Shown: positions 17,942 to 41,937 of the stretch, piece after piece
How the letters are laid out: each line of letters begins with the position of its first letter
Position numbering within the stretch: the first letter of the stretch is position 1
NCBI GenBank assembly: GCA_002716485.1
Contig: PBBE01000047.1
Coordinates: 1 to 47,644 of the forward strand
DNA length: 47,644 nucleotides
Direction: 5' to 3'
DNA from: Actinomycetota bacterium
GTDB lineage: Bacteria; Margulisbacteria; Marinamargulisbacteria; GCA-2716485
The notes under the pieces: generated by a model
The model's input: the letters and a program-made list of their open reading frames with translations, nothing else
The model's database searches: none
What the model was told of the DNA's origin: nothing
Program-made: the position numbers and the translations under genes

Positions 17942-18265
17942 ATGAACGTATATGGTAAAGTGCTCCGGTCAAGTAGTAGTGACTCTAAAGTAGGTTATGG
18001 AGCAATGGAAAGCCTTCGAAGTGCAGCCGATGTTGCGACGAAGCTTGTTTCTGATGATTTAGATGAACTTGCTTCTGATGATAAAGATAAAAAAGAATCC
18101 CCTGGAGGTAGCCCCGTTGCGGATATTTTGAATCAAATGCAACTAGAGCAAAGCTCAGTGGAACTTCGATCATATGACGATCAGTTATTTGAATTGCGAA
18201 TGGAGGAGGCACAAAAGATTTTTAGATCGAGTGAGATTTGGTTTGGTTCGAGTCCGTCTGAATAA
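17942..18265 (+). CDS. Small acidic Ser-rich hypothetical protein (107 aa)
   Basis: ORF with a strong RBS and promoter; no known motif. Confidence 0.7.
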   Translation: MNVYGKVLRSSSSDSKVGYGAMESLRSAADVATKLVSDDLDELASDDKDKKESPGGSPVADILNQMQLEQSSVELRSYDDQLFELRMEEAQKIFRSSEIWFGSSPSE

Positions 18266-18325
18266 TTAATACTGCATAATTTGGTTTTATTTTTAAAGAT
18301 TATTTGAATGCAAGGGGATCTCTAA

Positions 18326-22699: not shown

Positions 22700-25600
22700 T
22701 TGTGGAGGAAAAGTTTTTAGAAGGAATCCATGAAAAATATGAGTTATTGTCTTATCAGGGACGCCGGGTTTTAGAGCGGCATTTTTTGTCGTCAGATGTG
22801 GCCCTTTTGCAACACTTTATGAAGGAATCGGGGGTGCTTAAAGCGTTGACGGAGCGTGTGGAAGGGGTGTTTTTGGAGCATTGCCCTACAGGTGGGTTTG
22901 ATAAAAAGATGATGTTTTATTTACCTGAAAAGGGACTTAGTTTGGGGCAATTGTTATCTAAAGGGCCGATGAGTATGTCGGACTTTTATGCGTTTATTTT
23001 ACCCTTATTATCCCGACTCAAAAAGGTATATGGGGCAGATTTTTTTCATGGGAACTTGAACCCGAATACCATTATTGTGGATTCAGAGAGCTTTGAAAGT
23101 TATTTCTTTTCAGTTTCATTTTATGCAGAATCTGAACAGGCGGTTCCGTTTTATATGGCCTTAGGGAAATCTATATTGGCTTATTGTGCGCCGGAACGGA
23201 CCCAGCGATTGACCTTGCCTTATGATCATCGCTCAGATTTTTATGCCTTGGGGTGCTTGATTTATGAGTGCTTAACGGGCACTTGTTTATTTGATTTTGA
23301 GAAGCCAGAAGAGATGGTTTTTGCCCATTTGACCCAATCGCCTCGGGAGTTGTTTGGATTGAAGGGGAAGGTGCCGGACTACTTTTCGCCAATGTTACTT
23401 AAAATTATTGAAAAGTTGTTGCATAAAGATCCTCATCAGCGGTATCAGGATATTGATAGTCTGATTTATGATATTTCTCAGACTCAGCGCTTGGCAAGTA
23501 CAGTAAGCTTTCCTTTGGATACCCAGGGGAAGTATCGGAATGTGGTTCTTTCTGATCAATATTATGGTCATCAAAAAGAAAAAGATCAGATGGTGAGTAT
23601 TTATAAGAATAGCTTAAAAAATTATCCGCAGTTGGTGTTAGTGGAAGGCGAGAAAGGGGCTGGAAAGACCCGGTTTGCACATTCTATATTACATGGGGCG
23701 TTTAAACCGTATCCATTTATTGTGTTGGTTTCATTGCAGCCAAAAAATCAAGAAGTGCCCTACTTTGGCTTAACTAAGTTGTTGGAGCAACTGGTATTTA
23801 AGTTGATTTCTCAGACCAACGAACAAGAAATAGAAGAGATTCGGCCGCAGTTACATTCGATTTCGGATGAGAATGTGGCTTTGTTGATGCAGTTGTGTAG
23901 TAGTTATTCGGCGTTATTGGAGTTTTTTGAGTTGGATACCAAAGTCACTCAGTCGACTCAAGTGGCTAATTTTGGCCATGCAGTGGTTCAGTTTTTATCC
24001 GTGGTGTCTTTAGTGAAGCCCTTGGTATTTATTTTTGATGGCTTAGAATTTGCAGATGAGGCCACGATTCGCTTTATTTCTCAAAGTTTAGTGGTTTTGA
24101 ATGATCGACCAGTAACGTTTGTTGGGACTATTGGGGATGAGGTGCTAGCGGAAGGGAATTTGGTATATTCAGTGTTGGTTCAGCCGTCTAAAACGATGTA
24201 TGACTATCATTTATTAAAGTTGTCGTTATTGACGGTAAGAGATATTAAGGCATTTATTAAAGATACATTTCACTATCGAGTGGAGCGATTGGATGAATTG
24301 GCGGCCATTATTATACAAAAGACTCATGGGAATCCGCACTATATCCGGCAAAGTGTATCCTTTTTATTAAAGGAAGGATACTTTAAGTATTTGACGGAAT
24401 CGTCGATTTGGAAGTGGAGTTCGGAGCAGGTGAAGTCCATTAAAGTGGCAGATTCAGCAGTTAATTTGCTTTTGGGTCAGTATCGGTCTTATTCAGATGA
24501 TATTCGCTTATTGGTTCAATATGCGGCATGCTTTAAAGATTCATTTACCATGCAGCAAATGGCGTCTTTATTGGGCTTTTCTAATGATGTTTTAATTCAA
24601 TATTTATTGACCTTAATTGACGATAATATTTTAGTCATGGTGAACCAATCGATTTATTTGCTTTCTTCTCGAACTTTAAGGGAGCAGTCGTACGTGCTAG
24701 AACAAGCTAGTTTTGATTTTTCGAATCCAAAGATTAGTGCCTTTATTTATGATCAAGTTGCGGCTCAGGAGCGATCTGAGGTGCATTTTCGGATTGGGAA
24801 GTTATTGTTGGGGCAGCAAGATCAATTGGATGAGATGTTTGCAGAATATAAGATTGTGAAGCATTTTAATTTATCTGACAGAGCGTATTTGGATAAATCT
24901 TTGGCGAGACAGTTGGTGAACTTGAATTTACTTGCGGGTCAAAAGTCGAAAGCAGCGGGGCATTATCAAAAGGCCTTGGTTTATTTTGATTTTGCCTTAA
25001 AGTTTTTAGATGCCTTGCATGATGAGTGGGATCAGCCGTTATGTTTTTCTATTTTATTGGAACGGGTGAGGTGTTTGTATTTTAGTGTGGGATATGAGGC
25101 GGCCTTAGATGCCATTTCCCAGGCATCTGAATATAGTATGTCGCGCTTGGATAAGGCCACCGTGTTGATGGAGCAATTATTTGTTGAAATTGAACAAAAT
25201 TACTTTAGGAAGGCGACGGAAACGGCTTATGAGATGTTGCGACATTGTGGGGTTTATTTACCCAAAATAAAGGCGGTTATTATTTTGTTTTTGATTTTGG
25301 AAGCGCAAAAGATTAAACGATTTATTCATTTGCCAATTGAGACGGATTTGGTTTTAGATCCCCAACAATCACGGCGATTAGAGTTGATGTTTCGGGGGTT
25401 TGAGCTATTAAATACAAGTGTGCATTTGGTGAATAATGAACTGTTTGCCTTATCGTCTCTTAAATTACTATCCGCGTCTTATCAGATGGGAGGCTCTGCT
25501 AATTCGGCCTCTGGTTTGACCATGTATTCATTTTGGTTAACTACCCAACATAAGTTAGATGAGGCATTTACTTTTTCTGAAAAGGCCATTGATATTAGTA

Positions 25601-27987
25601 ATCACTTTGGTGACCCGACGATGATTGGTCGGTCTTTGTTGGCTTATTATGGGTTGGTAGGGATTTGGAAGATTCCTTTAAGAGAGACAGCCCCTGGTTT
25701 GGAGAAGGCATTTCGTAATTTGATGTTTGCAGGGCAACCTAGTTACGCTGTTATATGCTTGATATTTTCATTTTTGAATCAATTTTTTGTGGGGGTCAAG
25801 GTGCCCTTGTTATCGCAGCATTTAGCGCGTATTTTTGGGTATTTGAAGGGGATGGGGGTTTCTCTTGAATCGACTTCAGAGGTTCCTGATGAGCCAATGT
25901 CGTCTAGTATGAGCTTGATTAAAGTAGATGGGACCTTAGTGGATGATTTAAATATGTATCACAAATTTGTTCAGGTTTTAGCGGGTGGTGGTGGCCATTT
26001 TGATGAAATAAATCAAATTGATTTTAAACAATTAGATGATCGTTTTGACGATGGGTCACCGGTAGGCGTCTTTATGATGGTTTTTTGCTTTTTTGATAGT
26101 CAATATGAAAAGGGGCTTGAGATTGGGGATCAGCTTTGGCGTATGATTAAAGATCGTCATTTGGCGGTTATTTATCCGTTGTATATCTATTATTATAGTT
26201 TATTGATTTATCAAGGCTTTCAGGGTGCAAGCCTAAGACGGAAATGGATTTATCGACGACGTTTGTCTTATATTGTGAAACTTTATGATGGGTTTCAAGA
26301 TCGCTGTCCCGAAAATTTTCGGACGATTTATTTGTTTTTGGATGCCAAGTTATCGCATTTGAGATCTCCTTCATTTAACACAGTTCGTTATTTTAATGAG
26401 GCCGTGAGTTTGGCCATTCAAGATCAGATGCCCCATGTGGCAGGCTTGTGTCATCAAGCATTAGCGGATATTTATGAAGAAGAAGGGGTGTACCATTTGG
26501 CGTATACTCATTTAAATGAGGCTGTTCATTATTATTCGAATTGGGGCTTGAGTTTGGGGGTTCAAGAGATGAAGCTTAAGGTTGAATCATTGTATGAAAA
26601 ATGTAATTTATCTAAAGGGTTTATGCTTAATTTTTCTCAAGGGCTGGATTTTAAACGTTTGATTAATGCGAGTCAGTCTTTATCTCAAGAGACGAATTGT
26701 AAGGCCTTATTAGAGCAATTATTGAAGGTGGCCATGGAAAGTGCGGGAGCACAAAAGGCGGTTATTATTCTAAAGAAAGGAACTGATTTTTTTGTGGAAG
26801 CATCCTTTGATCCGAAGGACAATCAGATGAAGGTGTTTCAATCGGTTCCGATTCAGTCGGCGGATATGTTACCGAAGTCTTTGATTCAGTATGTTATTTT
26901 TACTAAAACCAAATTGCTGATTCATAACGCGGAGGGGCATAAGTTATTTCGGACGGATCCGTATGTGATTCAGAATGAACCGAAGTCGGTCTTATGTTTG
27001 CCTATTTTTAAACAGGTGGCATTAACAGGAGTGTTGTATCTTGAAAATAACTTGGTTTTTGATGGGTTTTCTGAAGATTCCTTACAGGTGTTAGAGGTGA
27101 TTGTCTCTCAAGCCGCTATTTCTATTGAAAATGCAGTTTTACATGAGCAGAACCAAGATTTAATTCATAACTTAGAGGACCGGGTTTCGTCTCAAATTAA
27201 GCAAACGCAGATAGCTGAACAGGAAAAAAACCAGAGTTTGAAAATGGTGAAAAAAGTATCAGAGCATTCGGCTTATGCGACTTTGACTAGAGGAATAGCT
27301 CATGAGATTCGCAATCCGATGGGGCTTATTTTATCGGGAATGGAATTAATTTTGGATAATATTCATGATAAAGAGTTGGTTCAAACGTATGCTCAATCTG
27401 TGAAGCAGAGCATGTTGCAGTTGTCGAGTATTACAACGAATATGCTTAACTATGGGACCCCGGTTTCGGACAAACGAGTCAATATGTCGATTAATGAGTT
27501 GATCAAAGATGCGTTAATGATGGCACGAACAGAGTGTAAGAAACGACGAATTGTGGTGAAAACGATTTTTAGAGAGGTTCCTGATGTGTATGTGGATACG
27601 AATAGTATTAGTCAGGCGTTTTTAAATATACTATTAAATGCGATTGAGGCCATTGATATGAATGGTGAAATTCAAATAGAAACCTTTGAGAGTCAGTGGG
27701 TTAATGCGTCTGGTCAACAAGTGGAAGGGGTGAAAGTGTTGGTTCAAGATTCTGGAAAAGGGATTCCTCAAGATATCTTAGATGAGATCTATGACCCGTT
27801 TTTTACTACAAAACATCAAAATGTAGGATTAGGACTTTCTCTGGTATTAAAAACAATAAGAGAGCATGAGGGGTTAATTGATGTGATTTCAAATGATGCA
27901 GGCTTGACGTCGTTTATTTTGCATTTACCTAGACAAGGTATTATAGAAGGGCGACGTGAGGAGGCCCTTTCTCTTTCAGTTAAGTAG
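22696..27987 (+). CDS. Multidomain sensor: degenerate Ser/Thr kinase, AAA ATPase, TPR-like region, GAF and histidine kinase (HstK-like)
   Basis: YCAPERTQRL and RSDFYALG kinase subdomains; P-loop GEKGAGKT; KTHGNPHY; GAF region (PKSVLCLPI, GVLYLENN); H-box IAHEIRNPM; N-box NAIEA; DSGKGI; FFTTK; GLGL. Confidence 0.92.
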   Translation: MIVEEKFLEGIHEKYELLSYQGRRVLERHFLSSDVALLQHFMKESGVLKALTERVEGVFLEHCPTGGFDKKMMFYLPEKGLSLGQLLSKGPMSMSDFYAFILPLLSRLKKVYGADFFHGNLNPNTIIVDSESFESYFFSVSFYAESEQAVPFYMALGKSILAYCAPERTQRLTLPYDHRSDFYALGCLIYECLTGTCLFDFEKPEEMVFAHLTQSPRELFGLKGKVPDYFSPMLLKIIEKLLHKDPHQRYQDIDSLIYDISQTQRLASTVSFPLDTQGKYRNVVLSDQYYGHQKEKDQMVSIYKNSLKNYPQLVLVEGEKGAGKTRFAHSILHGAFKPYPFIVLVSLQPKNQEVPYFGLTKLLEQLVFKLISQTNEQEIEEIRPQLHSISDENVALLMQLCSSYSALLEFFELDTKVTQSTQVANFGHAVVQFLSVVSLVKPLVFIFDGLEFADEATIRFISQSLVVLNDRPVTFVGTIGDEVLAEGNLVYSVLVQPSKTMYDYHLLKLSLLTVRDIKAFIKDTFHYRVERLDELAAIIIQKTHGNPHYIRQSVSFLLKEGYFKYLTESSIWKWSSEQVKSIKVADSAVNLLLGQYRSYSDDIRLLVQYAACFKDSFTMQQMASLLGFSNDVLIQYLLTLIDDNILVMVNQSIYLLSSRTLREQSYVLEQASFDFSNPKISAFIYDQVAAQERSEVHFRIGKLLLGQQDQLDEMFAEYKIVKHFNLSDRAYLDKSLARQLVNLNLLAGQKSKAAGHYQKALVYFDFALKFLDALHDEWDQPLCFSILLERVRCLYFSVGYEAALDAISQASEYSMSRLDKATVLMEQLFVEIEQNYFRKATETAYEMLRHCGVYLPKIKAVIILFLILEAQKIKRFIHLPIETDLVLDPQQSRRLELMFRGFELLNTSVHLVNNELFALSSLKLLSASYQMGGSANSASGLTMYSFWLTTQHKLDEAFTFSEKAIDISNHFGDPTMIGRSLLAYYGLVGIWKIPLRETAPGLEKAFRNLMFAGQPSYAVICLIFSFLNQFFVGVKVPLLSQHLARIFGYLKGMGVSLESTSEVPDEPMSSSMSLIKVDGTLVDDLNMYHKFVQVLAGGGGHFDEINQIDFKQLDDRFDDGSPVGVFMMVFCFFDSQYEKGLEIGDQLWRMIKDRHLAVIYPLYIYYYSLLIYQGFQGASLRRKWIYRRRLSYIVKLYDGFQDRCPENFRTIYLFLDAKLSHLRSPSFNTVRYFNEAVSLAIQDQMPHVAGLCHQALADIYEEEGVYHLAYTHLNEAVHYYSNWGLSLGVQEMKLKVESLYEKCNLSKGFMLNFSQGLDFKRLINASQSLSQETNCKALLEQLLKVAMESAGAQKAVIILKKGTDFFVEASFDPKDNQMKVFQSVPIQSADMLPKSLIQYVIFTKTKLLIHNAEGHKLFRTDPYVIQNEPKSVLCLPIFKQVALTGVLYLENNLVFDGFSEDSLQVLEVIVSQAAISIENAVLHEQNQDLIHNLEDRVSSQIKQTQIAEQEKNQSLKMVKKVSEHSAYATLTRGIAHEIRNPMGLILSGMELILDNIHDKELVQTYAQSVKQSMLQLSSITTNMLNYGTPVSDKRVNMSINELIKDALMMARTECKKRRIVVKTIFREVPDVYVDTNSISQAFLNILLNAIEAIDMNGEIQIETFESQWVNASGQQVEGVKVLVQDSGKGIPQDILDEIYDPFFTTKHQNVGLGLSLVLKTIREHEGLIDVISNDAGLTSFILHLPRQGIIEGRREEALSLSVK

Positions 27988-31269: not shown

Positions 31270-32463
31270 TTACTTTGCTAATAGTTCTATTACTTCTTTG
31301 TTGTTTGGATCGATTTCAATGGCACGTTGCCAACTATCAAAGGCCAAGTCTTCCAGTCCTAATTCATAATAAATGGAGCCAAGCCGGATATATAGTAGTG
31401 GTTGGGTAGGGTCAATTTGGATGGCTTGATTTAACTTGTTAAGTGCCATTTGGTAGCGTTTTTGTGAATAGTATTTGAATGAGTCAGAATAAAGGGCCAT
31501 GACTTTGCCGCTTTGCTTAGGTGCGACTTCAAATGGGAGGTCATGTTTTTTTCTGGGCCTCATTTCTTCTATTTTACTGGCCAATTGGGTTTTAAATCCA
31601 TCTACATCTTTTAATAAAGTGAGCCGTAATTTTTCAAGTTCATCCAATTCACCTTGGTATTGGTGCCATAAGTCTTCGATTTTATTGCCTAGTTTTTGGT
31701 ATTTTTTTTCATAGGCTTCAATTTCAGCACGTTGGTTTGAATAGGCGGATTTCATGCTGTTTTTTAGGGTGAATCCTACCGTTAGGTATCGGGAGGGGGC
31801 GTTATTATATTCCTCGTTGGCATCGCCTGAATGAGAAAGCTCGGTGAGGGCGATATTAATTTCAGTTTCTTTAGACGCATGAAACCGGTATCCAAAGTTG
31901 AAATCTTTGGTGTCATGTTCGAATATAATGGCGCCATTAAAAATATTGATTTCAAAGGCATAATAGAGACCGTTGCTGGTACTGATGCTTTTGATGGAGC
32001 TGAATTCTCGTTTGCCAAACCCGATATGTAGCCTTGAAAAGGGCGGTCCGAAATAAGTGGTTAAATAGGGGGAATAAAAATTTTCTTTTCCGGGACTCAC
32101 ATCGATCTTATTAGAACGGCTTGAGAGTTGTTTTTGGTTGCTAATATTTGCAATTCCGCCGGAGGCACCCACTAATTTTTTCATAAAAAAGTTCCAATGG
32201 ATATTAGCTGCAAATTGTTGGGGGCTTAAAATGGTGATGCCCGCTTTTATTTTTTCAGTGAGGCAGTAATTGAGCATCAGGTCAAATTCATGGGAGTAAT
32301 CTCGACTTAGTGCAAAAATCGTGCTTAGTTCAATGTCTCCACTTTGATGGGCTTTAGTCCCTGGAACATTGATTAAACTGGATGGGTAATGAAAGGCAGT
32401 GCTATAAACGGGGGTGTTTAAAAGACTGATGATAAAAATAAAGGTTCCGAGAATAATTCTCAT
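31270..32463 (-). CDS. Putative outer-membrane beta-barrel (YjbH-like) + coiled coil + C-terminal TPR protein, paralog 2
   Basis: Signal peptide, SLINVPGT motif, amphipathic strands (EHDTKDFNFGYRF, YLTVGFTL), heptad-rich segment and TPR pair with RLGSIYYELG...WQRAIEIDPNN. Confidence 0.7.
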   Translation of the reverse strand: MRIILGTFIFIISLLNTPVYSTAFHYPSSLINVPGTKAHQSGDIELSTIFALSRDYSHEFDLMLNYCLTEKIKAGITILSPQQFAANIHWNFFMKKLVGASGGIANISNQKQLSSRSNKIDVSPGKENFYSPYLTTYFGPPFSRLHIGFGKREFSSIKSISTSNGLYYAFEINIFNGAIIFEHDTKDFNFGYRFHASKETEINIALTELSHSGDANEEYNNAPSRYLTVGFTLKNSMKSAYSNQRAEIEAYEKKYQKLGNKIEDLWHQYQGELDELEKLRLTLLKDVDGFKTQLASKIEEMRPRKKHDLPFEVAPKQSGKVMALYSDSFKYYSQKRYQMALNKLNQAIQIDPTQPLLYIRLGSIYYELGLEDLAFDSWQRAIEIDPNNKEVIELLAK

Positions 32464-32465
32464 GA

Positions 32466-33758
32466 TTAGTTGCTAATGGCTTTATTTGGGCTAATAGGGG
32501 CTTGTTGGGGGATTGTTTCTGTTTTGTTTTGTGGGGTATCTTTTTTTTCTTTGGTTTTTTTTTGGGTTTTTTTTGATTCTCTGATTAGTTCTTTTTTGAT
32601 TTGTTTGAGATAGTTTACGATGTCTTTGTTTTTGGGATCAATTCGTAGGGCCATTTTCCATGCTGCTTTTGCCTTCTTATAATCTTTAAGTTTGAAGTAA
32701 ATGGAGCCAAGTCGGGTAAAGCCAACTGCAGAATTGGGGACGATTTTGACCACATTTAAGTATTCTTTTAAGGCATTTTGGTAGTCTTCATCATAGTAAA
32801 ACTCAAGGCCTCGCTGCATATGGACAAAGGCCCGTTTACTTGGATAACTTTCTTTGGGAAGGCCATCTTTTTCAAATGCGTCGGATAGGGTTTCTTCTAG
32901 GTCTTTTAGAAAGCCGGTTTGTTTGATAAGTTGATGGGTTTTTTCCACATCTTCTAGATTGTTTAGTCGAGTGTCGATATTATCGTAAGTTGAATTGAAT
33001 TCTTGACGTCCTACTAATAGGTCAGTGAGGCTATCTAAGACATTGCTGGCATAACTGACGCCGAATGAAAATAATCGTATTTCATGGCTAGGGTCTAATA
33101 TTTTGGGTCTTGCCGCCGTCCATGTTAAATAAATACGGGCTTTTTTTAGGTTGTATTTAAGACCAAGATTCGGAGAAAACCCGTCATATTCGGCAATAAT
33201 GGTTCCAAAGAGCATGCTTTTTTCAAAACCGCCTACAACACGTGTGATATTGGGTCTAATTCGATCAGAGGCGATTCCAATATGATAATTAGAGTTAAAT
33301 TTTAGTGATGAAATGGAGTAGATTGCAAATAAGTTCATAATGGGAATATTAGGAGCAGAGTCAATTTGCGGGATACTTCCCCAGCCTAGGTTTTTGAGAC
33401 CAATTCCAATATTATGTTGGATGGTTTTTTTTCTGTTTTGTCTTACAAATGGGGCGAAGTGAAAGCTATGAAGGGTATTCATGGTGTCTTGGACATTAAG
33501 GTTATATTCAAAGCGATCGGATAGTGCCCAGCGTAAATAAAATAATGTTCTAAAATAGACGGTGGCAGAGTCCGGGGTTTTGGCTCGGTAATCAAACATG
33601 GCACCATATTCAGTAAACCCCATTTTTTCCATTTTGGCAGAGGGGACTGTGATGAGGTCGTTTGATCCGGAAAAGCCAAATAGAAGCCCGTTTGAAAAGC
33701 CCCAAAATAGACTTAATAAAATGATAAGTTGTGGCTTAATGCGCATGTTGATCATCAT
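32466..33758 (-). CDS. Putative outer-membrane beta-barrel (YjbH-like) + coiled coil + C-terminal TPR protein, paralog 1
   Basis: Signal peptide, DLITVPSA motif, strands (EYDGFSPNLGLKY, FSFGVSY), coiled coil (IDTRLNNLE) and TPR pair with RLGSIYFKLK...WKMALRIDPKN. Confidence 0.7.
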   Translation of the reverse strand: MMINMRIKPQLIILLSLFWGFSNGLLFGFSGSNDLITVPSAKMEKMGFTEYGAMFDYRAKTPDSATVYFRTLFYLRWALSDRFEYNLNVQDTMNTLHSFHFAPFVRQNRKKTIQHNIGIGLKNLGWGSIPQIDSAPNIPIMNLFAIYSISSLKFNSNYHIGIASDRIRPNITRVVGGFEKSMLFGTIIAEYDGFSPNLGLKYNLKKARIYLTWTAARPKILDPSHEIRLFSFGVSYASNVLDSLTDLLVGRQEFNSTYDNIDTRLNNLEDVEKTHQLIKQTGFLKDLEETLSDAFEKDGLPKESYPSKRAFVHMQRGLEFYYDEDYQNALKEYLNVVKIVPNSAVGFTRLGSIYFKLKDYKKAKAAWKMALRIDPKNKDIVNYLKQIKKELIRESKKTQKKTKEKKDTPQNKTETIPQQAPISPNKAISN

Positions 33759-34257
33759 TTAAGGGGTCAAACTTATGGCATATATGAATAAGGCCTAACT
33801 CTTTTTGGTTAAGGGTACATTGGATTTGAGCGACTTGTAGTTGTTGGTCAGGAAAAAAGCATTGGCATTGTTCTTTTTTGGTTTCGCAGCGAGTAAGCTC
33901 GACGGGCTTATTGAGCTTAAGATAGAGTTGTTTAGTATCTTGGGACAGTTGAGATGAGAACAGGGATTCACTTGATGTTAAAATGTGTTCGGGTCGTTTA
34001 GTTACAATGCCATCACCTCCTAACATTCGGTCTGCTAATGCATAGATAATAGGGAGGTCAAAATTAAATAGAATGGGTTGGTTGTTTTCTTCAAATAATA
34101 GGGTGAAATTAAAGTCAGGTAATTGCTCTAGGAGGACATTAAAGGGCTGGTGCTTAAATTCAATATGAGTCATTTGAATCGAAATTTTGAGCTGTGATGC
34201 GATATGATCAGATAAGTTGAGTGCAAGTTGTTTATAAAATGGCTCAAATTGTGTCAT
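33736..34257 (-). CDS. fliM: FliM-like protein, middle (CheC-like) domain only
   Basis: FDLPIIYALADRMLGGDG...LTSSE matches the FliM GGxG region. It is 173 aa, with no LSQxEIDxLL N-terminus and no SpoA tail. Confidence 0.7.
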   Translation of the reverse strand: MTQFEPFYKQLALNLSDHIASQLKISIQMTHIEFKHQPFNVLLEQLPDFNFTLLFEENNQPILFNFDLPIIYALADRMLGGDGIVTKRPEHILTSSESLFSSQLSQDTKQLYLKLNKPVELTRCETKKEQCQCFFPDQQLQVAQIQCTLNQKELGLIHICHKFDPLNDDQHAH

Positions 34258-34274
34258 TGGACGTCCTTCCTATG

Positions 34275-34928
34275 TTATTGTACCGTTTCTTTAACGAGAA
34301 TGCTAATACGGCGGTTATTGGCTCTGTTTTGTTTGGAGGTATTCGGTGCAATTGGTTTGGTATCTGCATACCCAGTTACACGAAGACGGTGTGAGTTAAT
34401 TTTAGATTGAATTAGTCGTCTGGCTACGGCAGATGCTCTGGCAGCAGATAGTTCCCAATTAGATGGATAGATATCGGATTGGATGGGAATATTATCGGTA
34501 TGACCTTCAATAATAATTTGGCCGTTACTTTGTTGAAGAAGATGGCTGATTTTAATTAATATTTTGGAGGTGTTTGTTTTTATGCTGGCTTTACCCGAGT
34601 CAAATAATATTTCTGAACCTAGATTAATACGGATATTTTGGGGGGTTTGGATGATTTCAATATCATTTTCAAGTTGGTTTTCTATAATATAGGCATTTAG
34701 TGTATCGCTAATGTCTTGGAGTTGTTTTTGCTGATTTAAAAGGTCATTGAATGGGGAGTCGTTATTGTTGCTGAATGTATTGCTTAATGACGCTTGTGAT
34801 TCAATATATTTTCCGATATCGATTTCAGAAATAGAGTATAAATAAATGAAAAAGACGAGTAATAGAGTTAATAAGTCTGCCCAGCAGACAATAAAATGAT
34901 TTTTAGGTTGCTCGTTTAATTCATTCAT
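34275..34928 (-). CDS. motB: Stator B subunit (MotB/PomB-like, OmpA-type peptidoglycan-binding domain)
   Basis: WADLLTLLLVFF TM with the conserved Asp; EGHTDNIP, SNWELSAARA, GYADTKP and NRRISI motifs. Confidence 0.93.
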   Translation of the reverse strand: MNELNEQPKNHFIVCWADLLTLLLVFFIYLYSISEIDIGKYIESQASLSNTFSNNNDSPFNDLLNQQKQLQDISDTLNAYIIENQLENDIEIIQTPQNIRINLGSEILFDSGKASIKTNTSKILIKISHLLQQSNGQIIIEGHTDNIPIQSDIYPSNWELSAARASAVARRLIQSKINSHRLRVTGYADTKPIAPNTSKQNRANNRRISILVKETVQ

Positions 34929-35695
34929 TTGTTTGGTTTGAGCTTTTTACGCTCTTTTTCGGGTAGGCACATGGACATTTTTTCATAGATCATATAATTG
35001 GTCTCTTTTTGGGCAATGCAGATGATGCCTTCTAAGAGCATTTTCTTTTGGATTAGTTCTTCATTACTTGCAATTCGTAGACGACCTGATAGGGGTTGAA
35101 AAATGAGGTTCGCCAATAGGATGCCATAGAATGTTGTAATCAATGCGATGGCCATGTTAGGACCAATCGTCTCAGGGCTTTCTAGTTCTGACAGTAAGTT
35201 AATCAGTCCAATTAATGTGCCAATAAATCCGAATCCTGGAGCATATTGGGCCATTTGCTCAAAAAAATGGATACCTTGGTTATGTCGAGACTGGATAAAG
35301 TCAATATTTTTTTCTAAGATGGGAACTAATTCTTTGACGGGGATATTATCAATGAGTAGTTGAAGACCATGTTTTAAATAATGGTCTTGGGTTTTTTTGA
35401 CGGTTTTTTCGAGAGATAAGCGGCCATTTTTTTTGTAGTTAGTGGCGATTTCGCTCATGTGTTTGATGTCTTGTAAGTAGTCTCTGCCTCGTGGCGAGAA
35501 AATAACTTTTAACCGGCCACCAATTCGAAATAGCTGGGTTAATGGGAAATGGACGAGGGTGGCACCGAAAGTGCCGCCCATGACAATTAGAAATGAGGTT
35601 GGATGTACAAATAAATGGATTCCTTTTTCGATGCCAATGGCTTGAATAATGAGCCCGCAACCTAATAATACGCCTAAAAATGCGGTGATGTCCAT
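34925..35695 (-). CDS. motA: Stator A subunit (MotA/PomA-like)
   Basis: SFLIVMGGTFGA, GRLSLE, APGFGFIGTLIGLI and IGPNMAIALITTFYG motifs; AGGGAG RBS. Confidence 0.95.
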   Translation of the reverse strand: MDITAFLGVLLGCGLIIQAIGIEKGIHLFVHPTSFLIVMGGTFGATLVHFPLTQLFRIGGRLKVIFSPRGRDYLQDIKHMSEIATNYKKNGRLSLEKTVKKTQDHYLKHGLQLLIDNIPVKELVPILEKNIDFIQSRHNQGIHFFEQMAQYAPGFGFIGTLIGLINLLSELESPETIGPNMAIALITTFYGILLANLIFQPLSGRLRIASNEELIQKKMLLEGIICIAQKETNYMIYEKMSMCLPEKERKKLKPNK

Positions 35696-35699
35696 GTGC

Positions 35700-36698
35700 T
35701 TACTCCCTTTTTTCGATTAGTTCTGATAATGGGTTGACTTTGTTGTTTCGTTCGAGTTCACGTGCTGTTTGAATAATATTTTTTTGGGCGATTTTGGCAT
35801 CATTTTCATTGAGCTCTTTGGGCAAGTTACTGATTTCTTCTTCTAACATGAACTTAAGTCGTTCGGAGAGGTTTTCTAGAATTCTATTTTTCACGTTGAT
35901 ATTAGAAATACTAAGGGCTGCTGCTAAGGTGCTTAATGGATCAATAGCGTATAGTAGACTTTGAAGATCTTTATCAGATAGATTGATTAAGTCTCCAAAT
36001 TCAAGCATATAGGATTTGATTTTTTGACTGGCTTCTTGGTCGCTTTGTTCAAAGTGGGTCATAATTGCACTCATATGTTCAGGGTTCATCACTTCGAGAC
36101 TTAAGGATAATTTGAGGTATGGATCTGTGCTTTCTTTGCTCACTTTTTCTTTTAATAATTGGTCTTTGAGGTGATGATGGATCTTCCAAGCCAAGCTAAT
36201 ATTGGGGATGTCTATTTTGAGTAGTTTTGAGGTGATGAGAATACTGATGTCTTTTTCAAATTGGGATAATAGTTGGGCCATTTTGTCTTCCGGTAAAAAA
36301 GAGCAAATAAGGGCGCTTAGTTGCGGTGGTTCATTTAATAAAAATTGGGTGAGCTTTTCATTATCAACTTGGTTAAGAAAGTGGAATAATTGGTCACTTT
36401 TTTCAAATAATGACGCATGGGAAATATCTGGAAATGATTGTTCAAAGAGATGGCTGGGGAGTAGTTCACCACCAAAGTGGGATCGCTTTCCGTTTAATAG
36501 GGTATGAAATTCTTCGATAATTGGTGAGGAGATATCTTCTTTAATATGTCCTAACTTTGACATGCTTTGTAGGAGTTGGGTGCTTTGTGTTTTTCCCAGT
36601 TTATTGAGTACTTCATGGGTTACCCCTGGGGACTCGACCTCTAAAGATAAGAGCAAGATGGCTGCTTTTTGGATAGGGGTATAGGTATCATCATTCAT
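35700..36698 (-). CDS. fliG: Rotor protein FliG (divergent)
   Basis: QKAAILLLSL, the GG linker, EPPQ (EHPQ-like), MLEFGDL (MFxFEDL-like) and torque helix NLSERLKFMLEEE. Start set at 36698 after an AGGAG RBS. Confidence 0.9.
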   Translation of the reverse strand: MNDDTYTPIQKAAILLLSLEVESPGVTHEVLNKLGKTQSTQLLQSMSKLGHIKEDISSPIIEEFHTLLNGKRSHFGGELLPSHLFEQSFPDISHASLFEKSDQLFHFLNQVDNEKLTQFLLNEPPQLSALICSFLPEDKMAQLLSQFEKDISILITSKLLKIDIPNISLAWKIHHHLKDQLLKEKVSKESTDPYLKLSLSLEVMNPEHMSAIMTHFEQSDQEASQKIKSYMLEFGDLINLSDKDLQSLLYAIDPLSTLAAALSISNINVKNRILENLSERLKFMLEEEISNLPKELNENDAKIAQKNIIQTARELERNNKVNPLSELIEKRE

Positions 36699-37788
36699 TA
36701 TTGATGTCTCCTTCTTGTTCTTGGTCTTTAATCCAGCCCATAATGGTGTGGGCAACTGCTTCTGGTTTTTTTAATGAGATATTGGCCAGTTCTTTTCGTT
36801 TCTGTTTAAAAAGTCGTAGTTGTCGTTTTGCTTCTAGAGCTGCTTTTTTTTGAGCGTCTTCTTGTTTTTTTAAAATGGCTGCTTTTTTTTCTTTGATTTG
36901 ACGTCGAAGAAATAGTCCTAGTTTTGTTAGAAAGTAGAGAAGTAAGAGTAATATGCTAGTAATAAATAATTTGAAGTCTTGAGCGGCAATAAAAGATTTA
37001 GTGGTATCAAAAAAGGGTTTATGTCGGGCAAGAAAGCGTTGGATAATAAATAAGGGGCCTTGAAATGGGGTGTATTGGATGTCGAGTTGGTCTTGTCGTG
37101 TAGGGTTAAATCCTGAGATTGATTGGATAAGTGATTTTAAAGTGTCGGTGTCAATGGGGATTAGTTGTGTGGAAGCGCTATCAAGTAAAATTTGGATTTG
37201 CATTTGTTGGATTATGTTTTTGGGGCTGGAAATAGTTTCATTGGTTTCATTGTAGTAAATGGATTCAATCTTTTCGGAGATACTGGTATTTACCTTTTGT
37301 ATTTTTTCTTTGGGGATGCTTGGTTTAATACTTTCGACGACGACGCCAGGAAAGCCTGGTAGTGCGGATTCATTACTTTGACGTTGGGTAATGAGCCCAG
37401 GAAGTTTAAGTCCGTCTTTATAGAGCTGTTGTAACATTTGAGCAGATTGTCTAAGCGGGACCTGGGGAATGATATCACCATTTAGTTTTTGTTGGCGTTG
37501 GGTAATGATTCGATTTGGGGTTAGTTCTTTAGATTTTTGGATACGATGTTCGGGGATATCTAAGTTAACGGCGATGATAAAGGCAGTTTCAGGATAGAAT
37601 TTTTTGAGTAGTAGATGGATGTCTCCTTTAATTTTAAGGCTTTGTCGTTCTGGAAATGATAGGGATTGATGGGGGCGACGCTCAGATAGCCAGTTAGTGA
37701 TTTTATTGGGGGTTCTGAATAGAAAAAAGGTCCCCAAGAGGATGGCGATAATCAGGATGGGTAAATAAGGTGATTTATGTGTCGTCAT
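36691..37788 (-). CDS. fliF: FliF-like MS-ring protein, RBM3/C-terminal half only
   Basis: TM1, then RBM3-like segments (LLLKKFYPETAFIIAVNLDI; IIQQMQIQILLD; LIQSISGFNPTRQDQLDIQYTPF), TM2 and a FliG-binding tail KPEAVAHTIMGWI. Start set at MTTHK (37788). Confidence 0.75.
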   Translation of the reverse strand: MTTHKSPYLPILIIAILLGTFFLFRTPNKITNWLSERRPHQSLSFPERQSLKIKGDIHLLLKKFYPETAFIIAVNLDIPEHRIQKSKELTPNRIITQRQQKLNGDIIPQVPLRQSAQMLQQLYKDGLKLPGLITQRQSNESALPGFPGVVVESIKPSIPKEKIQKVNTSISEKIESIYYNETNETISSPKNIIQQMQIQILLDSASTQLIPIDTDTLKSLIQSISGFNPTRQDQLDIQYTPFQGPLFIIQRFLARHKPFFDTTKSFIAAQDFKLFITSILLLLLYFLTKLGLFLRRQIKEKKAAILKKQEDAQKKAALEAKRQLRLFKQKRKELANISLKKPEAVAHTIMGWIKDQEQEGDINNE

Positions 37789-39073
37789 TAGTTTTAAAAA
37801 TTTGGATTCGGTTATTACCAGAATCAACGACATATAAGGTGCGGGCACTACTATCATAGTGTAATTGACGAGGGAATTTAAACTCACCTGTATCGCTGCC
37901 TTCTTGGCCCCAGTTGGCAACGTGAAGGCCGGTTCTTATATCAAATATTTGGATACGATGATTAAACGTGTCTGAAACGTATAGATGGTGGTTGGCGCTA
38001 TCTATGGCCATGCCTTCTGGGCTTTTGATATTGCCTGTACTGGTACCATATTTAATTGTATTAAATTGGGTGAGCTCATTATTGCTTAATCGTTGTACAA
38101 TACTTAATTCTTTGTTGACGATGTAGACATCGTTATCATAATGGGCCAGATCATAGGCAAATAAGGTGGCGTTACTGTCTTGGAATGAGCTTGTGGGGCC
38201 AGTGTGGATCCGGTGGTCATCGAGGCTGCTATAGACCACCGATGTGAGATTGCTTGGGTTGGCTCTGACGGCAATGGGGTTATCTAGATTGTTGATCGGG
38301 ATAAAGGGATCTCCACTTTCTCCCCAATTATCAGGGTCAAATTTGATGATACGGTTATTACCAGAATCAGCGACCCAGATTCTGCTCCCGTCATAGGTGA
38401 GTCCTCGGGGATATCTAAATTGAAACTCGCCAGACCCTGCAGTGCCATAGGTGGCCATTAAGCTGCCAGAGGGGGCATATTTTTGGATTCGAGAGTTTAG
38501 GGTGTCTGATACATAAATATTTTTGTTGCTATCTAGGGTAATGCCCGTGGGATGGATGAGTGCGTCATTGGGGGTAATATTGAGTTGATGGGACATAAAT
38601 CCGGTATATTTGAGTGCTTTGGGTGAGGATGATGAAAATGTGTAATTTCTAGTTGAAATGGCTTGTAAAATAAAATTATAAGTAGTAAAGCCTTCACTTA
38701 ACTTTTGCTCAAGGATATATTGGTATATGATGGCATTGTTAATGGAAATATTTTCAGTGATAATTAGTAGGTCTTGGTTGTTTTTATTAGGTTCAACAGG
38801 GAATTGTTGGATGTATTGGTAGGGCTGGGTGCTTCCTTCGGTTTTGAAAGCCAATTTGTAATGGTCTACATTTTCGGGGTTATTGATAATCCATTTGATG
38901 GTAATAAATTGGGTGGCTTTATCGAGTTCGATTGATGAGATCATTGGAATGCTTTGAAAATCGTCAAATTTAACAGTGGCGGTTAAATTATCGATGGGGC
39001 TGGATGTGCAGCCGATAATCAGGCCTAAGCAAAGAAGGATTGTACTGACTTCGATATGCAGCCTTTTGATCAT
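37775..39073 (-). CDS. Lipoprotein with an FN3-like domain and an NHL-repeat beta-propeller
   Basis: Lipobox LIIG-C; NHL repeats (PTGITLDSNKNIYVSDTLNSRIQK, PRGL..WVADSGNNRI, PEGMAID..YVSDTFNHRIQ, YVVDSGNNRIQ). Confidence 0.88.
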   Translation of the reverse strand: MIKRLHIEVSTILLCLGLIIGCTSSPIDNLTATVKFDDFQSIPMISSIELDKATQFITIKWIINNPENVDHYKLAFKTEGSTQPYQYIQQFPVEPNKNNQDLLIITENISINNAIIYQYILEQKLSEGFTTYNFILQAISTRNYTFSSSSPKALKYTGFMSHQLNITPNDALIHPTGITLDSNKNIYVSDTLNSRIQKYAPSGSLMATYGTAGSGEFQFRYPRGLTYDGSRIWVADSGNNRIIKFDPDNWGESGDPFIPINNLDNPIAVRANPSNLTSVVYSSLDDHRIHTGPTSSFQDSNATLFAYDLAHYDNDVYIVNKELSIVQRLSNNELTQFNTIKYGTSTGNIKSPEGMAIDSANHHLYVSDTFNHRIQIFDIRTGLHVANWGQEGSDTGEFKFPRQLHYDSSARTLYVVDSGNNRIQIFKTNDDT

Positions 39074-40917
39074 CGACTTAGCCTTTCTAGTTCATTTTTT
39101 AAGGCAATATTCTCTGATTTAAGGGCATTAATTTCGCTTTGTTGGGCTTTAATAGATTCAATGATAAGACCGATTAATGGCGTCATGTTCAATGTTTTAT
39201 ATCCGCTGGGATCGGTGCCTACTAGGTTTGGGTAAATATCTTCGACATTTTGGGCGATTAAACCGATTTGGCTGCCCTCTGGAAAGGACCGTTCGGGAAA
39301 CTCGTCTTGACGCCATTCATAAGTGACCCCATTGAGTTCAGAAAGGGAAGCTATGGGAGTTGAAATGGCCTTGATCTCTTTTTTTAAGCGCCGATCAGAT
39401 GGTGTGCTGAGTGCCATTCCGGGGGTTCCTGCCATAAAGGTGGTGCCAGTGACATGTAAGTCGCCGGTGATCTTAATGCCGGCACCGTAGTCATTGATTT
39501 TTCCTAATTCTAAATTGGTTCTGGCTGCTTCTGCAGTGGTGCCGCCGGTACCTCCCTTGCTTATGGCAATGATGGGGAGACGGTTGGCAGGGACCTCTTG
39601 GGCGTAGGTGGTGGTGATATTGGTATTGCTTAAATTGGTCATGGTGGCTGTTCCTGTAATATCACCAGTAAGTGTAATAACGGGATCATTGACATCAAAG
39701 CTTAGTGTTTTATTGGGATGGCTGCCAGCGCCATCTATAGAAATGCCATTCTCTGTATTGTCATTGACCATTTTGATTACTTCGTCTCTTACTTCATTTC
39801 CATTTAATCCGCCACCAGCCCCGGCGGGAACGTTAGATAGCCAGTTGTAGTGGATTCGACCGGCGCCTGTTGGCTCATCATCAAGGTCAACTTTTTTATA
39901 AAACGTATTTTCAGTATAGCTTGTAATGGCTTTTTCAGTAGGAATTGCGCTATCACTATTTCCTGTAAAGGTGGCATCACTACTGAACTCGTTGACTGGA
40001 ACCCCTGAGTTAAGGAGAAGTGTGCCTTTGACTTCAAGGGTTTCACTGGGATTGGTGGTATTAATACCGACATTGCCTTTATTATAGAAAATTTCATTGG
40101 CTTCACTGCCGTCTTCCCAGCGCCCTGCATTTTCGTCCACATAGGTTTTGATGGCTTTTTCAGTGGGAATACTGTTGTCACTATTGCCAGCAAGGGAGGT
40201 ATCGGTACTAAAGTTGTTAATCGCGGTTCCAGAATTTAAAAGAAGGGACCCGTTCTTGATATGAAGTTTCTCGGTTGGGTTGGTGATGCCAACGCCTACA
40301 TTGCCAGAGAGATAATAAATTTCATCGCTGTCATCACGCTCTTTCCATTTTCCACCGTTTTCTTTGATGTATTCGACAATGGCCAATTGGGATGCAATTT
40401 TATTATCACTTGGATTGGTAAAGGTGATGTCGGTACTTAGTGCTTGGATTTCGTTACCATTGTTAATTGTAATGCTTTTAACCTTAATGGATTGCTCGTT
40501 ACCAAATAATGATGGGACTAGGTCAATTGCATAGGGGGCGGCTGTGAGTGAGTGGGTTAGGGGGATGGTTACTTGGTCAATGGTATAGGACTCCGCCCCT
40601 TCGATGCTAAATTGCAAGTTTGGGGTGGGGATATCAAGTAGGTTTGGGGTTAAAGGGGTGCTATGTCCCAAGGTAAGATCAGCATGGCCATCCACAAAAG
40701 AGACCCCAATTAATGTTTCACTCCAAGCGGTTGCGGTGGTATCTGAAAATAGTGCGATTTTCACTCGCTTGTAGCCGTTAATAGGGCCGTTTTGGTCAGA
40801 AAGGTTTAATGTGATGGGGATGACTTTGGATGCCGCTATGATAGGGCTGCTATTTTTAATTAATAGGCCGGAGATAAGGGCGCTCCAAATAAGTATTTGA
40901 AAGAAATAGCGTTTCAT
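39070..40917 (-). CDS. Secreted trimeric fibre/adhesin with a C-terminal peptidase S74 intramolecular chaperone
   Basis: Signal peptide; GNVGVGITNP and GNVGINTTNP repeats; tail-fibre motifs (ITLTGDITG, KGGTGGTTAEAARTNL); SDRRLKKEI...GVTYEW...IGLIAQNVE and a terminal coiled coil. Confidence 0.88.
   Translation of the reverse strand: MKRYFFQILIWSALISGLLIKNSSPIIAASKVIPITLNLSDQNGPINGYKRVKIALFSDTTATAWSETLIGVSFVDGHADLTLGHSTPLTPNLLDIPTPNLQFSIEGAESYTIDQVTIPLTHSLTAAPYAIDLVPSLFGNEQSIKVKSITINNGNEIQALSTDITFTNPSDNKIASQLAIVEYIKENGGKWKERDDSDEIYYLSGNVGVGITNPTEKLHIKNGSLLLNSGTAINNFSTDTSLAGNSDNSIPTEKAIKTYVDENAGRWEDGSEANEIFYNKGNVGINTTNPSETLEVKGTLLLNSGVPVNEFSSDATFTGNSDSAIPTEKAITSYTENTFYKKVDLDDEPTGAGRIHYNWLSNVPAGAGGGLNGNEVRDEVIKMVNDNTENGISIDGAGSHPNKTLSFDVNDPVITLTGDITGTATMTNLSNTNITTTYAQEVPANRLPIIAISKGGTGGTTAEAARTNLELGKINDYGAGIKITGDLHVTGTTFMAGTPGMALSTPSDRRLKKEIKAISTPIASLSELNGVTYEWRQDEFPERSFPEGSQIGLIAQNVEDIYPNLVGTDPSGYKTLNMTPLIGLIIESIKAQQSEINALKSENIALKNELERLSR
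39907..40443 (-). repeat. Internal protein repeat of about 76 aa (about 2.3 copies) in the fibre gene
   Basis: LSTDITFTNPSDNKIASQLAIVEYI / FSTDTSLAGNSDNSIPTEKAIKTYV / FSSDATFTGNSDSAIPTEKAITSYT; the first two are followed by W..EI.Y..GNVG....P...L...LLLNSG. Confidence 0.8.
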
Positions 40918-41010
40918 TGAAGTTGGGTCCTAAATACTTGTGATTTTGATATAGACGGGCTCCTTTATTCTATCCTTTTTATGGCCTGGAGTCCAATTTT
41001 TAAGCGACTA

Positions 41011-41937
41011 CTAGGTCTTTTTTTTAAGTGACCAATGTAATGAAAACAGGTGGGACTGGGGGACTTGAGGATGGCTGTTGGGTAAGAATGCGTATTGGAG
41101 TTGGAGTTGATTTAGATTAAGACTTAGCCCGGTACTTGCTTGTATGAGGTCTAGGTTATGGTGTTGGGAATATCCAAAATATATCGATAGGAGCGAGACT
41201 TGTGTGGGATGTAAAATGATGCCTAGTGCGCTGATCATGGCGTTTCGGGTGGGGTGGCTTTTGGTTTGGCTTCTGATGCTAAAGTGTCTGGATTGGAATT
41301 GATGGCTGATGATGATTTGGGTGGGGTAGTGGGCGCTGATGCGTTGGTTTTGGTAGTTTTGATGGAAAGGGTGCTTTATCAGGTGATTAATAATCAGGGA
41401 ATAGTGATGGGCGGATTGGGTCCAATATGCGCCGATGCCAGCATTGATATTATTGAATATATTCTGGTCGATTTCAGTGCGAATCCAAGATGTTTTGAGA
41501 CCGAGGTAAGCATGGGGAGATAGGCGGGTAGCGATGATATGGTTGAGTTCTAGGTGTTGATAATGAAAGCTGTGGTGAATGATTGGGTAGTCATTGATCA
41601 GGGTGCTGTGGTGTAACTGCGAGACACTGGTTTTCATTAGGCCGATTCCCATGGGGATGTTTTTGAATGGGAACGTGCTCGCGAATTGTTGGTACTGGAT
41701 TTCGTTTAGGATACGGGTGTTAAATAAGGAAAAGGATGGCGATTTGATACGCCCAATTGTGGCTGGGTTTCCGAAGACGCTGCTGGCATGATCTGAAAAG
41801 CCTTGGATGTTGCCGCTGCCGATCATTTTGGCACTATTGCCCAAGTGACTGGCTAAAAATGATTGGCTTTGCTTGCCCCAACTGGGGCTGCTTAGGAGTA
41901 GGAGTATTATAGCGAAGGTAGGGCGTTTATTGATCAT
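41011..41937 (-). CDS. PorV/PorQ (FadL-fold)-like outer-membrane beta-barrel
   Basis: Signal peptide; N-terminal plug motif GNSAKMIGSGN...DHASSVFGNPATI (similar to GARaxgMG...NPAgL); C-terminal LQYAF...HLFSLHW. Confidence 0.65.
   Translation of the reverse strand: MINKRPTFAIILLLLSSPSWGKQSQSFLASHLGNSAKMIGSGNIQGFSDHASSVFGNPATIGRIKSPSFSLFNTRILNEIQYQQFASTFPFKNIPMGIGLMKTSVSQLHHSTLINDYPIIHHSFHYQHLELNHIIATRLSPHAYLGLKTSWIRTEIDQNIFNNINAGIGAYWTQSAHHYSLIINHLIKHPFHQNYQNQRISAHYPTQIIISHQFQSRHFSIRSQTKSHPTRNAMISALGIILHPTQVSLLSIYFGYSQHHNLDLIQASTGLSLNLNQLQLQYAFLPNSHPQVPQSHLFSLHWSLKKKT

Follow-up and report, generated by a model that had tools for sequence, protein, structure and literature searches.

Introduction

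In the flagellar motor, FliM is an adaptor in three parts, of which the first is a CheY peptide, the second a core that binds FliG and the third a FliN-like base. The N-terminal peptide binds CheY-P, the SpoA base binds FliN and docks FliH-FliI, and RBM1-2 of FliF surround the export gate. Here, we analyse a stretch of 47,644 nucleotides (nt), contig PBBE01000047.1 of assembly GCA_002716485.1, which is referred to as the window and belongs to a metagenome-assembled genome of Marinamargulisbacteria (1.40 Mb, 59 contigs, 56% complete). On its reverse strand, directly after a motB gene, lies a gene for a FliM-like protein of 173 amino acids (aa), hereafter short FliM, which an earlier note on this DNA had read as the FliM of a flagellar rotor that dispenses with FliN and with the CheY switch. 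We find that short FliM is a new conserved core-only variant of FliM, and we propose that it is probably the subunit that binds FliG in an accessory rotor-stator module of flagellar type, which has neither export nor switch parts. This module most likely stands apart from the flagellar switch complex, of which it would be a paralogue.

The closest described system is flagellar FliM itself, with structures from Thermotoga maritima (2HP7/4FHR), Helicobacter pylori (4GC8/4FQ0) and the Salmonella C-ring (8UMD). Short FliM shares with it the fold, homology across all 173 aa, the GGXG loop, which makes the FliM contact with FliG_M in FliG-FliM crystal structures, and a partner FliG with an EHPQ-like patch. 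Unlike flagellar FliM, short FliM has neither the CheY peptide nor the SpoA domain, groups separately from the canonical FliMs of the phylum, in a clade of its own, and its gene follows motB or fliG in a set without export genes, flanked in the window by motB and a TPR gene rather than by fliN and fliOPQR. The phosphatases CheC, CheX and FliY belong to the same α/β/α fold superfamily, and CheX is likewise a small, single-domain protein; however, they score lower in sequence and fold, the phosphatase motif is not conserved in short FliM, and a chemotaxis context is missing. Flagellin-less flagellar type III systems are known from Buchnera. Another such system is described in the available part of a study on Lysobacter enzymogenes OH11 (PMC7688988). 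As context only, the window's class resembles both in keeping basal-body and export genes with flagellin in one of 41 genomes, whereas separate rotor-stator modules with a FliM-core subunit are not reported for either in the text available. In Campylobacter jejuni, FliY, FliM and FliN form a diversified C-ring with extra switch paralogues (PMC6946799, available part), so that one organism holds several switch-protein paralogues, as here. The C. jejuni paralogues join a single flagellar C-ring and keep SpoA, whereas both terminal domains are gone from short FliM, which is encoded alongside a FliF, a FliG and stators of its own. A search of the literature outside subscription journals yielded no account of a FliM-middle-only paralogue, of such an operon or of flagellar genes in Marinamargulisbacteria; the parts available of PMC12505986, on MotAB evolution, and of PMC8382752 hold nothing on such modules and nothing relevant, respectively.

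Results

Short FliM is a FliM middle domain and nothing more

In Pfam, short FliM matches a sole family, PF02154 FliM (E 9.8e-6, 26.0 bits), with residues 3–161 aligned to positions 16–180 of the 192-position profile. The chain ends 12 residues past the matched region, and the 173-aa protein shows no match to FliMN_C/SpoA (PF01052). At the other end, the match begins at profile position 16, which corresponds to Salmonella residue 59, and the N-terminal CheY-P-binding peptide (LSQxEIDxLL type) has no counterpart. A profile of 33 family members matches nine FliM sequences in the PDB (top 5x0z_E, E 3.6e-11) and covers residues 59–224 of the 334-residue Salmonella FliM, leaving the N-terminal ~50 residues and the C-terminal SpoA part unmatched; PF02154 itself is matched by 29 of the 33 members, with a best E of 1.8e-21. 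The AlphaFold2 model has a mean pLDDT of 93.1 and a pTM of 0.87, and in a Foldseek comparison with the PDB FliM middle domains fill the first 16 listed ranks (4fhr_A, E 1.5e-11; TMq 0.73–0.81). Pfam, the PDB profile and the AlphaFold2 model with Foldseek therefore agree on what the earlier note had proposed, namely a FliM cut to its FliG-binding middle domain without N-peptide and without SpoA.

The same comparisons bear on the possibility that short FliM is FliM-like in fold only and acts on a response regulator as a CheC/CheX-like regulator or phosphatase. FliY, CheC and CheX do share the fold family, and the nearly invariant S96 and E97 would suit such a protein; they appear, however, at Foldseek ranks 18–37, below the FliM middle domains, which rank higher in sequence as well as in fold. 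The phosphatase motif, D/S-x3-E-x2-N-x22-P, is absent, as no conserved N stands at +3 after E97 in the alignment. Additionally, CheW is found in one of 41 genomes, and the gene is linked to fliG rather than to che genes. We thus regard a phosphatase or regulator of this kind as very unlikely.

The short fliM gene is intact and under purifying selection

The signals around the gene are as the earlier note had them. A ribosome-binding site, AGGAAGGA, the complement of forward-strand positions 34264–34271, stands 6 nt 5' of the ATG (34255–34257). The gene is coupled on both sides: its distance from the motB stop codon (34275–34277) is 17 nt, and the ATG of the next gene, TPR1, at 33758 overlaps the final 23 nt of its open reading frame (ORF). 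The MLGGDG motif described for the ORF is read within DRMLGGDG at residues 76–83, in which LGGDG, the GGXG loop, occupies residues 79–83.

A HMMER scan over 1.84 billion representative proteins (E ≤ 0.001) returned 40 homologues, 34 of which are 156–240 aa long, and the orthologous ORFs in relatives' loci span the same 156–240 aa; full-length orthologues in close relatives, which would have spoken for recent pseudogenisation, are not seen, the orthologues being short throughout. In the 33-sequence alignment G80 is invariant, and G81, S96, E97 and F134 are nearly so. The ratio of non-synonymous to synonymous substitution rates (dN/dS) is 0.12 and 0.20 in two within-genus orthologue pairs of relatives, one pair from each of two genera, while a third pair is saturated. 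Moreover, a contig from a separate run and study covers positions 33630–34600 with one change and no indel; the change, 34012 A>G, is synonymous (GAT>GAC at D82). Searches of other kinds returned fewer sequences: a word-indexed protein search found a 103-aa fragment identical to the window protein as its sole match with the single query and five proteins with the alignment as query, and a locus search with a six-sequence alignment found two named loci, both of Candidatus Marinamargulisbacteria.

A decaying remnant or a mis-assembled fliM fragment would be in keeping with a score just below the Pfam cut-off and with the one identical 103-aa fragment in the word-indexed search. Against this stand the conservation of length and motifs in 30 of 146 genomes, the dN/dS values of 0.12–0.20, the confident AlphaFold2 model and the intact ORF on an independent contig, which together leave this explanation a negligible probability. 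The short fliM gene is intact, under purifying selection and not decaying, and the argument against decay in the earlier note holds on the grounds of conserved orthologue lengths, low dN/dS and the independent contig.

Short fliM belongs to a seven-gene set with rotor and stator paralogues

In the window, short fliM is the fifth of seven genes in the order FliF-like, FliG, MotA, MotB, short FliM, TPR1 and TPR2, with junctions of −23 to +17 nt (Table 1). The FliF-like protein contains PF08345, whereas PF01514 (RBM1-RBM2) is not matched in Pfam. Its family profile aligns with residues 230–558 of Salmonella FliF (E 2.1e-15), including the C-terminal tail (PRVVALVIRQWMSND versus kkPeafaklilgWveld), in which P342 is invariant. 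The AlphaFold2 model of this protein is of moderate confidence (pLDDT 67.6), and all 18 of its Foldseek matches at E ≤ 1e-3 are FliF RBM3/S-ring chains. FliF-like and FliG are mostly encoded by separate genes among the loci, but in all three long orthologues they are fused into one chain with YscJ_FliF_C, FliG_N, FliG_M and FliG_C. One 824-aa FliF-like::FliG fusion (genome G019, contig C10, L032:9509-11983) carries an SLH domain (E 5.7e-8) at residues 240–276, within its periplasmic part.

The FliG of the set, which we call A-type, is full length, and its family profile spans solved FliGs end to end (1lkv, E 9.4e-43; 3hjl, residues 4–326; Salmonella 8umd). The EHPQ patch of FliG_M is matched by E-x-x-Q, and the torque helix (T. 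maritima SKRAAALLKDELE) by nlseRlkeileeeie, whose R is retained in 17 of 19 FliGs. In Escherichia coli, R281 and D288-D289 of FliG are MotA contacts according to the available part of PMC12505986. On the side of short FliM, GG(x)G is present in 16 of 19 loci, and in these the partner FliG keeps the Q of E-x-x-Q in 16/16 and the E in 15/16; in the three loci without GG (G019, G002 and G039), the Q of FliG is missing in 3/3. These sequence patterns are indirect evidence for a possible direct contact of FliG with short FliM.

The stator genes are of flagellar type. All ten PDB matches of the MotA are flagellar MotA/PomA proteins (top 8ucs_C, E 9.5e-41), and the MotB combines a plug with a peptidoglycan-binding domain (Table 1). 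Two further MotB-like genes occur in the same genome, on contigs C56 and C35. The former belongs to a MotA-MotA-MotB set with its motA genes in tandem (C56:1734-3988). The latter is part of a second rotor-stator set (C35:18748-22690) that encodes a TPR protein, a 487-aa protein with signal peptide, periplasmic domain, transmembrane helix, FliG_M and FliG_C, a MotA and a MotB; no other length class of FliG_C frames is as widespread in the class as this one (~475–509 aa), and two relatives have the C35-type cluster as well. The last two genes of the window's set are paralogues that each join a putative barrel and TPRs in one chain. In the protein atlas, the N-terminal domain of TPR1 lies near YjbH/DUF5777 outer-membrane barrels (score 0.95, TM 0.67–0.74), which is a lead to a putative barrel.

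Taken together, the module keeps the RBM3/collar and FliG-binding tail of FliF, the whole of FliG, the core of FliM and the MotAB stator, and it is without RBM1-2 of FliF, the FliM N-peptide, the FliM SpoA domain and FliN. In this gene set, then, the earlier note was right that neither a FliN-like gene nor a CheY-binding peptide accompanies short FliM.

Table 1. Features of the seven-gene module and of the same-strand run upstream of it (positions in the window).
Feature	Position	Strand	Description
TPR2	31270..32463	(-)	397 aa, TPR1 paralogue (phmmer E 1.9e-9); signal peptide, putative barrel, C-terminal TPRs
TPR1	32466..33758	(-)	430 aa; signal peptide, YjbH/DUF5777-like N-terminal domain, coiled coil, C-terminal TPR (TPR_1 E 3.8e-12)
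Short FliM paralogue ('FliMmid')	33736..34257	(-)	173 aa, ATG start; FliM middle domain alone, GGXG loop at 79-83
motB / short-fliM spacer	34258..34274	(-)	17 nt, holds ribosome-binding site AGGAAGGA; read directly from sequence
MotB paralogue	34275..34928	(-)	217 aa; plug PF13677 E 6.2e-11 and OmpA-type peptidoglycan-binding PF00691 E 2.1e-21
MotA paralogue	34925..35695	(-)	256 aa, flagellar type; PF01618 E 8.5e-25
Full-length FliG paralogue ('A-type')	35700..36755	(-)	FliG_N, FliG_M, FliG_C; likely start ATG 36698 (332 aa), not TTG 36755
FliF-like protein	36691..37788	(-)	365 aa from ATG 37788; transmembrane helix TM1, RBM3/beta-collar-like periplasmic domain, TM2, C-terminal KPxxxAxxIxxW tail
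NHL-repeat lipoprotein	37775-39073	(-)	directly upstream in strand run; module membership uncertain; kept there only in closest relative
615-aa protein	39070-40917	(-)	terminal Peptidase_S74 intramolecular chaperone domain, fibre-like; module membership uncertain
PorV/PorQ-like outer-membrane barrel	41011-41937	(-)	protein atlas TM 0.81-0.88; module membership uncertain
203-aa protein	41934-42545	(-)	type IX secretion system (T9SS)-type Por_Secre_tail sorting domain, 27.7 bits vs cut-off 27; module membership uncertain

The module is kept in relatives within and beyond the class

We compared 18 distinct relatives' loci, 13 from the window's class and five from other classes of the phylum. In all 18, short fliM is clustered with an A-type fliG and a TPR1-like gene. 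The exact seven-gene order of the window recurs in six; in ten, short fliM directly follows fliG, and motAB is elsewhere in the cluster or missing from it. Individual loci deviate further: L038 has the window order with no FliF-like or TPR2 gene detected, and in L036 a motA-motB-short fliM set lies 2 kb from the remaining module genes. When the pairing with FliG_C was compared by hand, leaving out a weak match in an 870-aa frame of G004, 22 of 23 short-FliM places shared a contig with a FliG_C match, the exception (G031:C51) being near a contig end.

Across the phylum, the short-FliM profile gives strong matches (at least 78 bits) in frames of 159–261 aa at 34 places in 30 of 146 genomes, and weaker matches (at most 53 bits) in frames mostly of 320–556 aa, often in the same genomes. 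Four genomes (G005, G009, G011 and G032) hold two copies of the module. At G002:C1:39789-41973 and G008:C40:21962-24378, a weak FliG_C match (334 and 411 aa) and a short FliM-like frame (168 and 178 aa) share a contig in a third pairing that is more divergent, which suggests further diverged module copies.

The same genome encodes a full-length FliM and a FliN

Besides the module, the window's own genome has basal-body and export genes. Contig C58 (3117-4994) encodes a full-length FliM of 625 aa, with the FliM domain at residues 46–171, FliMN_C at 248–316 and then a long acidic tail; this tail comprises ~300 aa with EEEADELEDDT-like repeats. The same contig carries genes for a ParA/FlhG-like ATPase, a 146-aa FliN, FliO, FliP, FliQ, FliR, FlhB, FlhA and a sigma factor, and it alone accounts for PF01052 in this genome. 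The central inference of the earlier note, a C-ring without FliN, is therefore refuted by the 625-aa FliM and the 146-aa FliN next to fliOPQR, flhB and flhA, and the fliN gene it had supposed to be missing was found there by a genome search.

Short and canonical FliM are also distinct as families. Scores against the short-family hidden Markov model are bimodal, 89–198 bits for 19 short forms versus 24.6–50.6 bits for 19 canonical FliMs of the phylum, and a maximum-likelihood tree, built without an outgroup and with three short forms on long branches, splits the two at 100/96, each side including members of the window's class and of other classes. In a quick FliG tree, the 19 A-type FliGs fall on one side of a branch (SH-aLRT 91), beside five canonical 334-aa FliGs of other classes, and are set apart from the membrane-anchored forms of ~490–545 aa at 98. 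Judged by these sequence relationships, short FliM is an old, separate paralogue of canonical FliM.

These observations bear directly on the reading of the earlier note, in which short FliM would be the organism's own flagellar FliM, reduced to give a C-ring without FliN and without CheY input. The ORF does lack both terminal domains, and chemotaxis genes were not found (CheW in 1/41 genomes, MCPsignal in 0/5). However, C58 encodes a full-length FliM with SpoA as well as FliN, and the short and canonical forms fall into separate clades and are found side by side in many genomes, which makes a reduced flagellar FliM highly improbable. Pseudogene, CheC-like phosphatase and sole but reduced FliM are accordingly all rejected on the evidence given above.

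The class keeps a basal body without filament and chemotaxis genes

Contig C5 (about 12750-23774) encodes a FliK-like protein, FlgF/G, FlgA, FlgH, FlgI, FlgC, FliE and a 601-aa FliF with PF01514. A few kb upstream of these rod and ring genes, C5:6691-9809 holds genes for two LPP20-family lipoproteins (440 and 163 aa) and a DUF6175 protein; LPP20 is the family of the flagellar disk protein FlgP. Directly after FliF, C5 encodes a protein of 225 aa that has FliG_N and a portion of FliG_M but lacks FliG_C. In five of six relatives of the class, fliF is followed by a homologous ORF for a short FliG of 191–240 aa, and in the sixth by a 174-aa ORF with no phmmer match; FliG_C is confined to accessory gene sets in the class. 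The class as a whole keeps FliF, FliE, FlgB/C/F/G, FlgA/H/I, FliM/N, FliOPQR, FlhAB, FliI and a FliK-like protein; FliF is found in 37 of 41 genomes, and the ATPase of the type III secretion system in five of five.

On the other hand, flagellin is found in one of 41 genomes of the class and in none of the 18 that are at least 90% complete, and the same counts hold for CheW. MCPsignal was found in none of five genomes searched, and in five genomes of the class there is no Flg_bbr_C frame of hook length, the frames seen being 149–299 aa. An LSQEEI-type N-terminus is missing in 11 of 11 canonical FliMs (eight from the window's class, three from family f37), whereas all eight canonical FliMs from other sampled families of the phylum have an ILSQEEINALL-type N-terminus; flagellin was checked in three of those eight genomes. 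Most of the canonical FliMs without this N-terminus, in the window's genome and ten of relatives, carry a conserved L-x-P-A-I-G-D-W-T motif near residue 15–25. By its gene content, the basal-body set of the class looks like a filament-less, non-rotating export apparatus, and the class as a whole seems uncoupled from chemotaxis. The uncoupling proposed in the earlier note thus survives for the class, given the CheW and MCPsignal counts and the altered FliM N-termini, and fails as a property of a reduced flagellar C-ring, since short FliM is a paralogue in its own right and is encoded in a second set of genes.

Outside the class the situation is different. Five genomes of other classes, each at least 90% complete, all have flagellin, 4–7 FliG_C genes including a canonical 334-aa FliG, and the seven-gene module. 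Because the module is present together with flagellin in other classes and is kept in a class almost devoid of flagellin, it dates from before filament and chemotaxis genes were lost in the window's class, and it has outlasted their loss.

One heteromeric basal body is an unlikely alternative to two machines

The main rival to a separate module is a single machine, in which the FliF-like protein, A-type FliG and short FliM would co-assemble with FliF, the short FliG_N/M, FliM and FliN in one heteromeric basal body and supply its missing torque domain, with the TPR proteins as stator scaffolds. TPR scaffolds for stators are known in Campylobacterota. Such an arrangement would account for the FliG after FliF consisting of the N and part of the M domain (in the window's genome and, at 191–240 aa, in five of six relatives) and for the FliG_C of the class being found in accessory gene sets only, and the RBM3 of the FliF-like protein is homologous to the ring-forming part of FliF. 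However, the five flagellin-bearing genomes of other classes have a complete canonical FliG of 334 aa beside the module, so that the module is not needed to complete a rotor there. Conversely, the A-type module is missing from G025 and G027, two genomes of at least 95% completeness in which FliF and the short FliG are present. The module is also duplicated in G005, G009, G011 and G032, and the FliF-like protein has a FliG-binding tail of its own and is fused 1:1 to its own FliG in some lineages. On balance, we consider a single machine unlikely, and a separate rotor-stator module remains our preferred reading.

Surface-type genes upstream of the module and other genes in the window

Upstream of the FliF-like gene, the same-strand run 37775-42545 continues through overlapping junctions with the last four genes of Table 1. 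Upstream of the module in two distant loci (L053 and L056) lie large proteins with PKD or PMP repeats and with CHU_C tails that score below threshold. A search for SprA_N of the T9SS translocon matched in none of five genomes, the positive control being likewise unmatched. The surface-type proteins upstream may be cargo or output of the motor.

Elsewhere in the window, the forward-strand region 16543-27987 encodes a 415-aa protein with two receiver domains, then ORFs of 107 and 1457 aa without Pfam matches and, as its last gene, a 1763-aa protein with a Ser/Thr kinase domain, AAA_16, GAF, HisKA and HATPase_c. On the reverse strand, region 610-7348 includes a 1677-aa ORF with no Pfam match at E ≤ 1e-5, which overlaps the start of a 583-aa POTRA-domain protein by 47 nt.

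Discussion

The gene content and the conserved contacts lead us to the following model of the module. The FliF-like protein would form an S-ring-like ring in the inner membrane, and its C-terminal tail would hold FliG_N, a pairing that some relatives realise as a natural fusion of the two proteins. The GGXG loop of short FliM would bind FliG_M at its E-x-x-Q patch in the manner of the flagellar C-ring, giving a shallow FliG/FliM_M ring that stiffens and orients FliG_C, and MotAB stators would push the conserved torque helix. The missing FliM N-peptide would leave no CheY input; the missing SpoA/FliN base would leave no docking site for FliH/FliI and probably no cooperative switching; and the missing RBM1-2 of FliF would leave no socket for an export gate. 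Because the N-peptide, SpoA/FliN and RBM1-2 are all missing, the module would be a one-way, export-less motor, the output of which may pass to the two barrel/TPR proteins or to surface proteins.

Several points weigh against this model. Binding, ring formation and rotation are inferred from the genes. The co-variation of GG in short FliM with Q in FliG amounts to one independent pair on well-supported branches, or two on all branches, and thus cannot be significant; moreover, the GG motif is lost in three lineages, so that the canonical interface is not universal in the family. motAB is not inside the cluster in L028, L029, L032, L033, L037 and L052, and the SLH domain of the G019 fusion would tether the supposed rotor to the wall. 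The short FliM of the window scores 1 bit below the PF02154 gathering score of 27, the genome is 56% complete, and the order of duplications is not fixed because the trees are without an outgroup.

A broader picture may be drawn, which we put forward tentatively and regard as possible rather than probable. Margulisbacteria might carry a free-standing, flagellum-derived rotary motor, made of FliF(RBM3), FliG, the FliM core and MotAB and spanning the envelope via barrel/TPR proteins. The marine class might then have split the flagellum into two parts. The first would be a filament-less, torque-less export basal body, for which FliF, a FliG without its C domain, FliM and FliN without the CheY peptide, the export gate, the rod and the L/P rings are found. 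The second would consist of rotor-stator modules without export parts, one to three in number, whose drive goes to another target, perhaps to surface proteins that a PorV-like barrel holds. On this tentative picture, the three-protein rotor might be an intermediate between the flagellar C-ring and fused FliF::FliG mini-motors.

In these natural, conserved proteins, the domains that tie a rotor to secretion and chemotaxis are removed and the torque-linked ones are kept. They offer a minimal system for the role of FliM_M alone in a FliG ring, in assembly, stiffness and a fixed sense of rotation, and a testable case of modular evolution of the flagellar motor, with rotor-stator and export apparatus as separable units. 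For annotation, genes of this kind are named 'flagellar motor switch protein FliM' (as in one source name), and genomes would thereby be scored as motile despite flagellin in one of 41 genomes of the class. Finally, the module gives a lead to an envelope machine that has not been described before, in a marine lineage that is abundant, uncultured and sister to Cyanobacteria.

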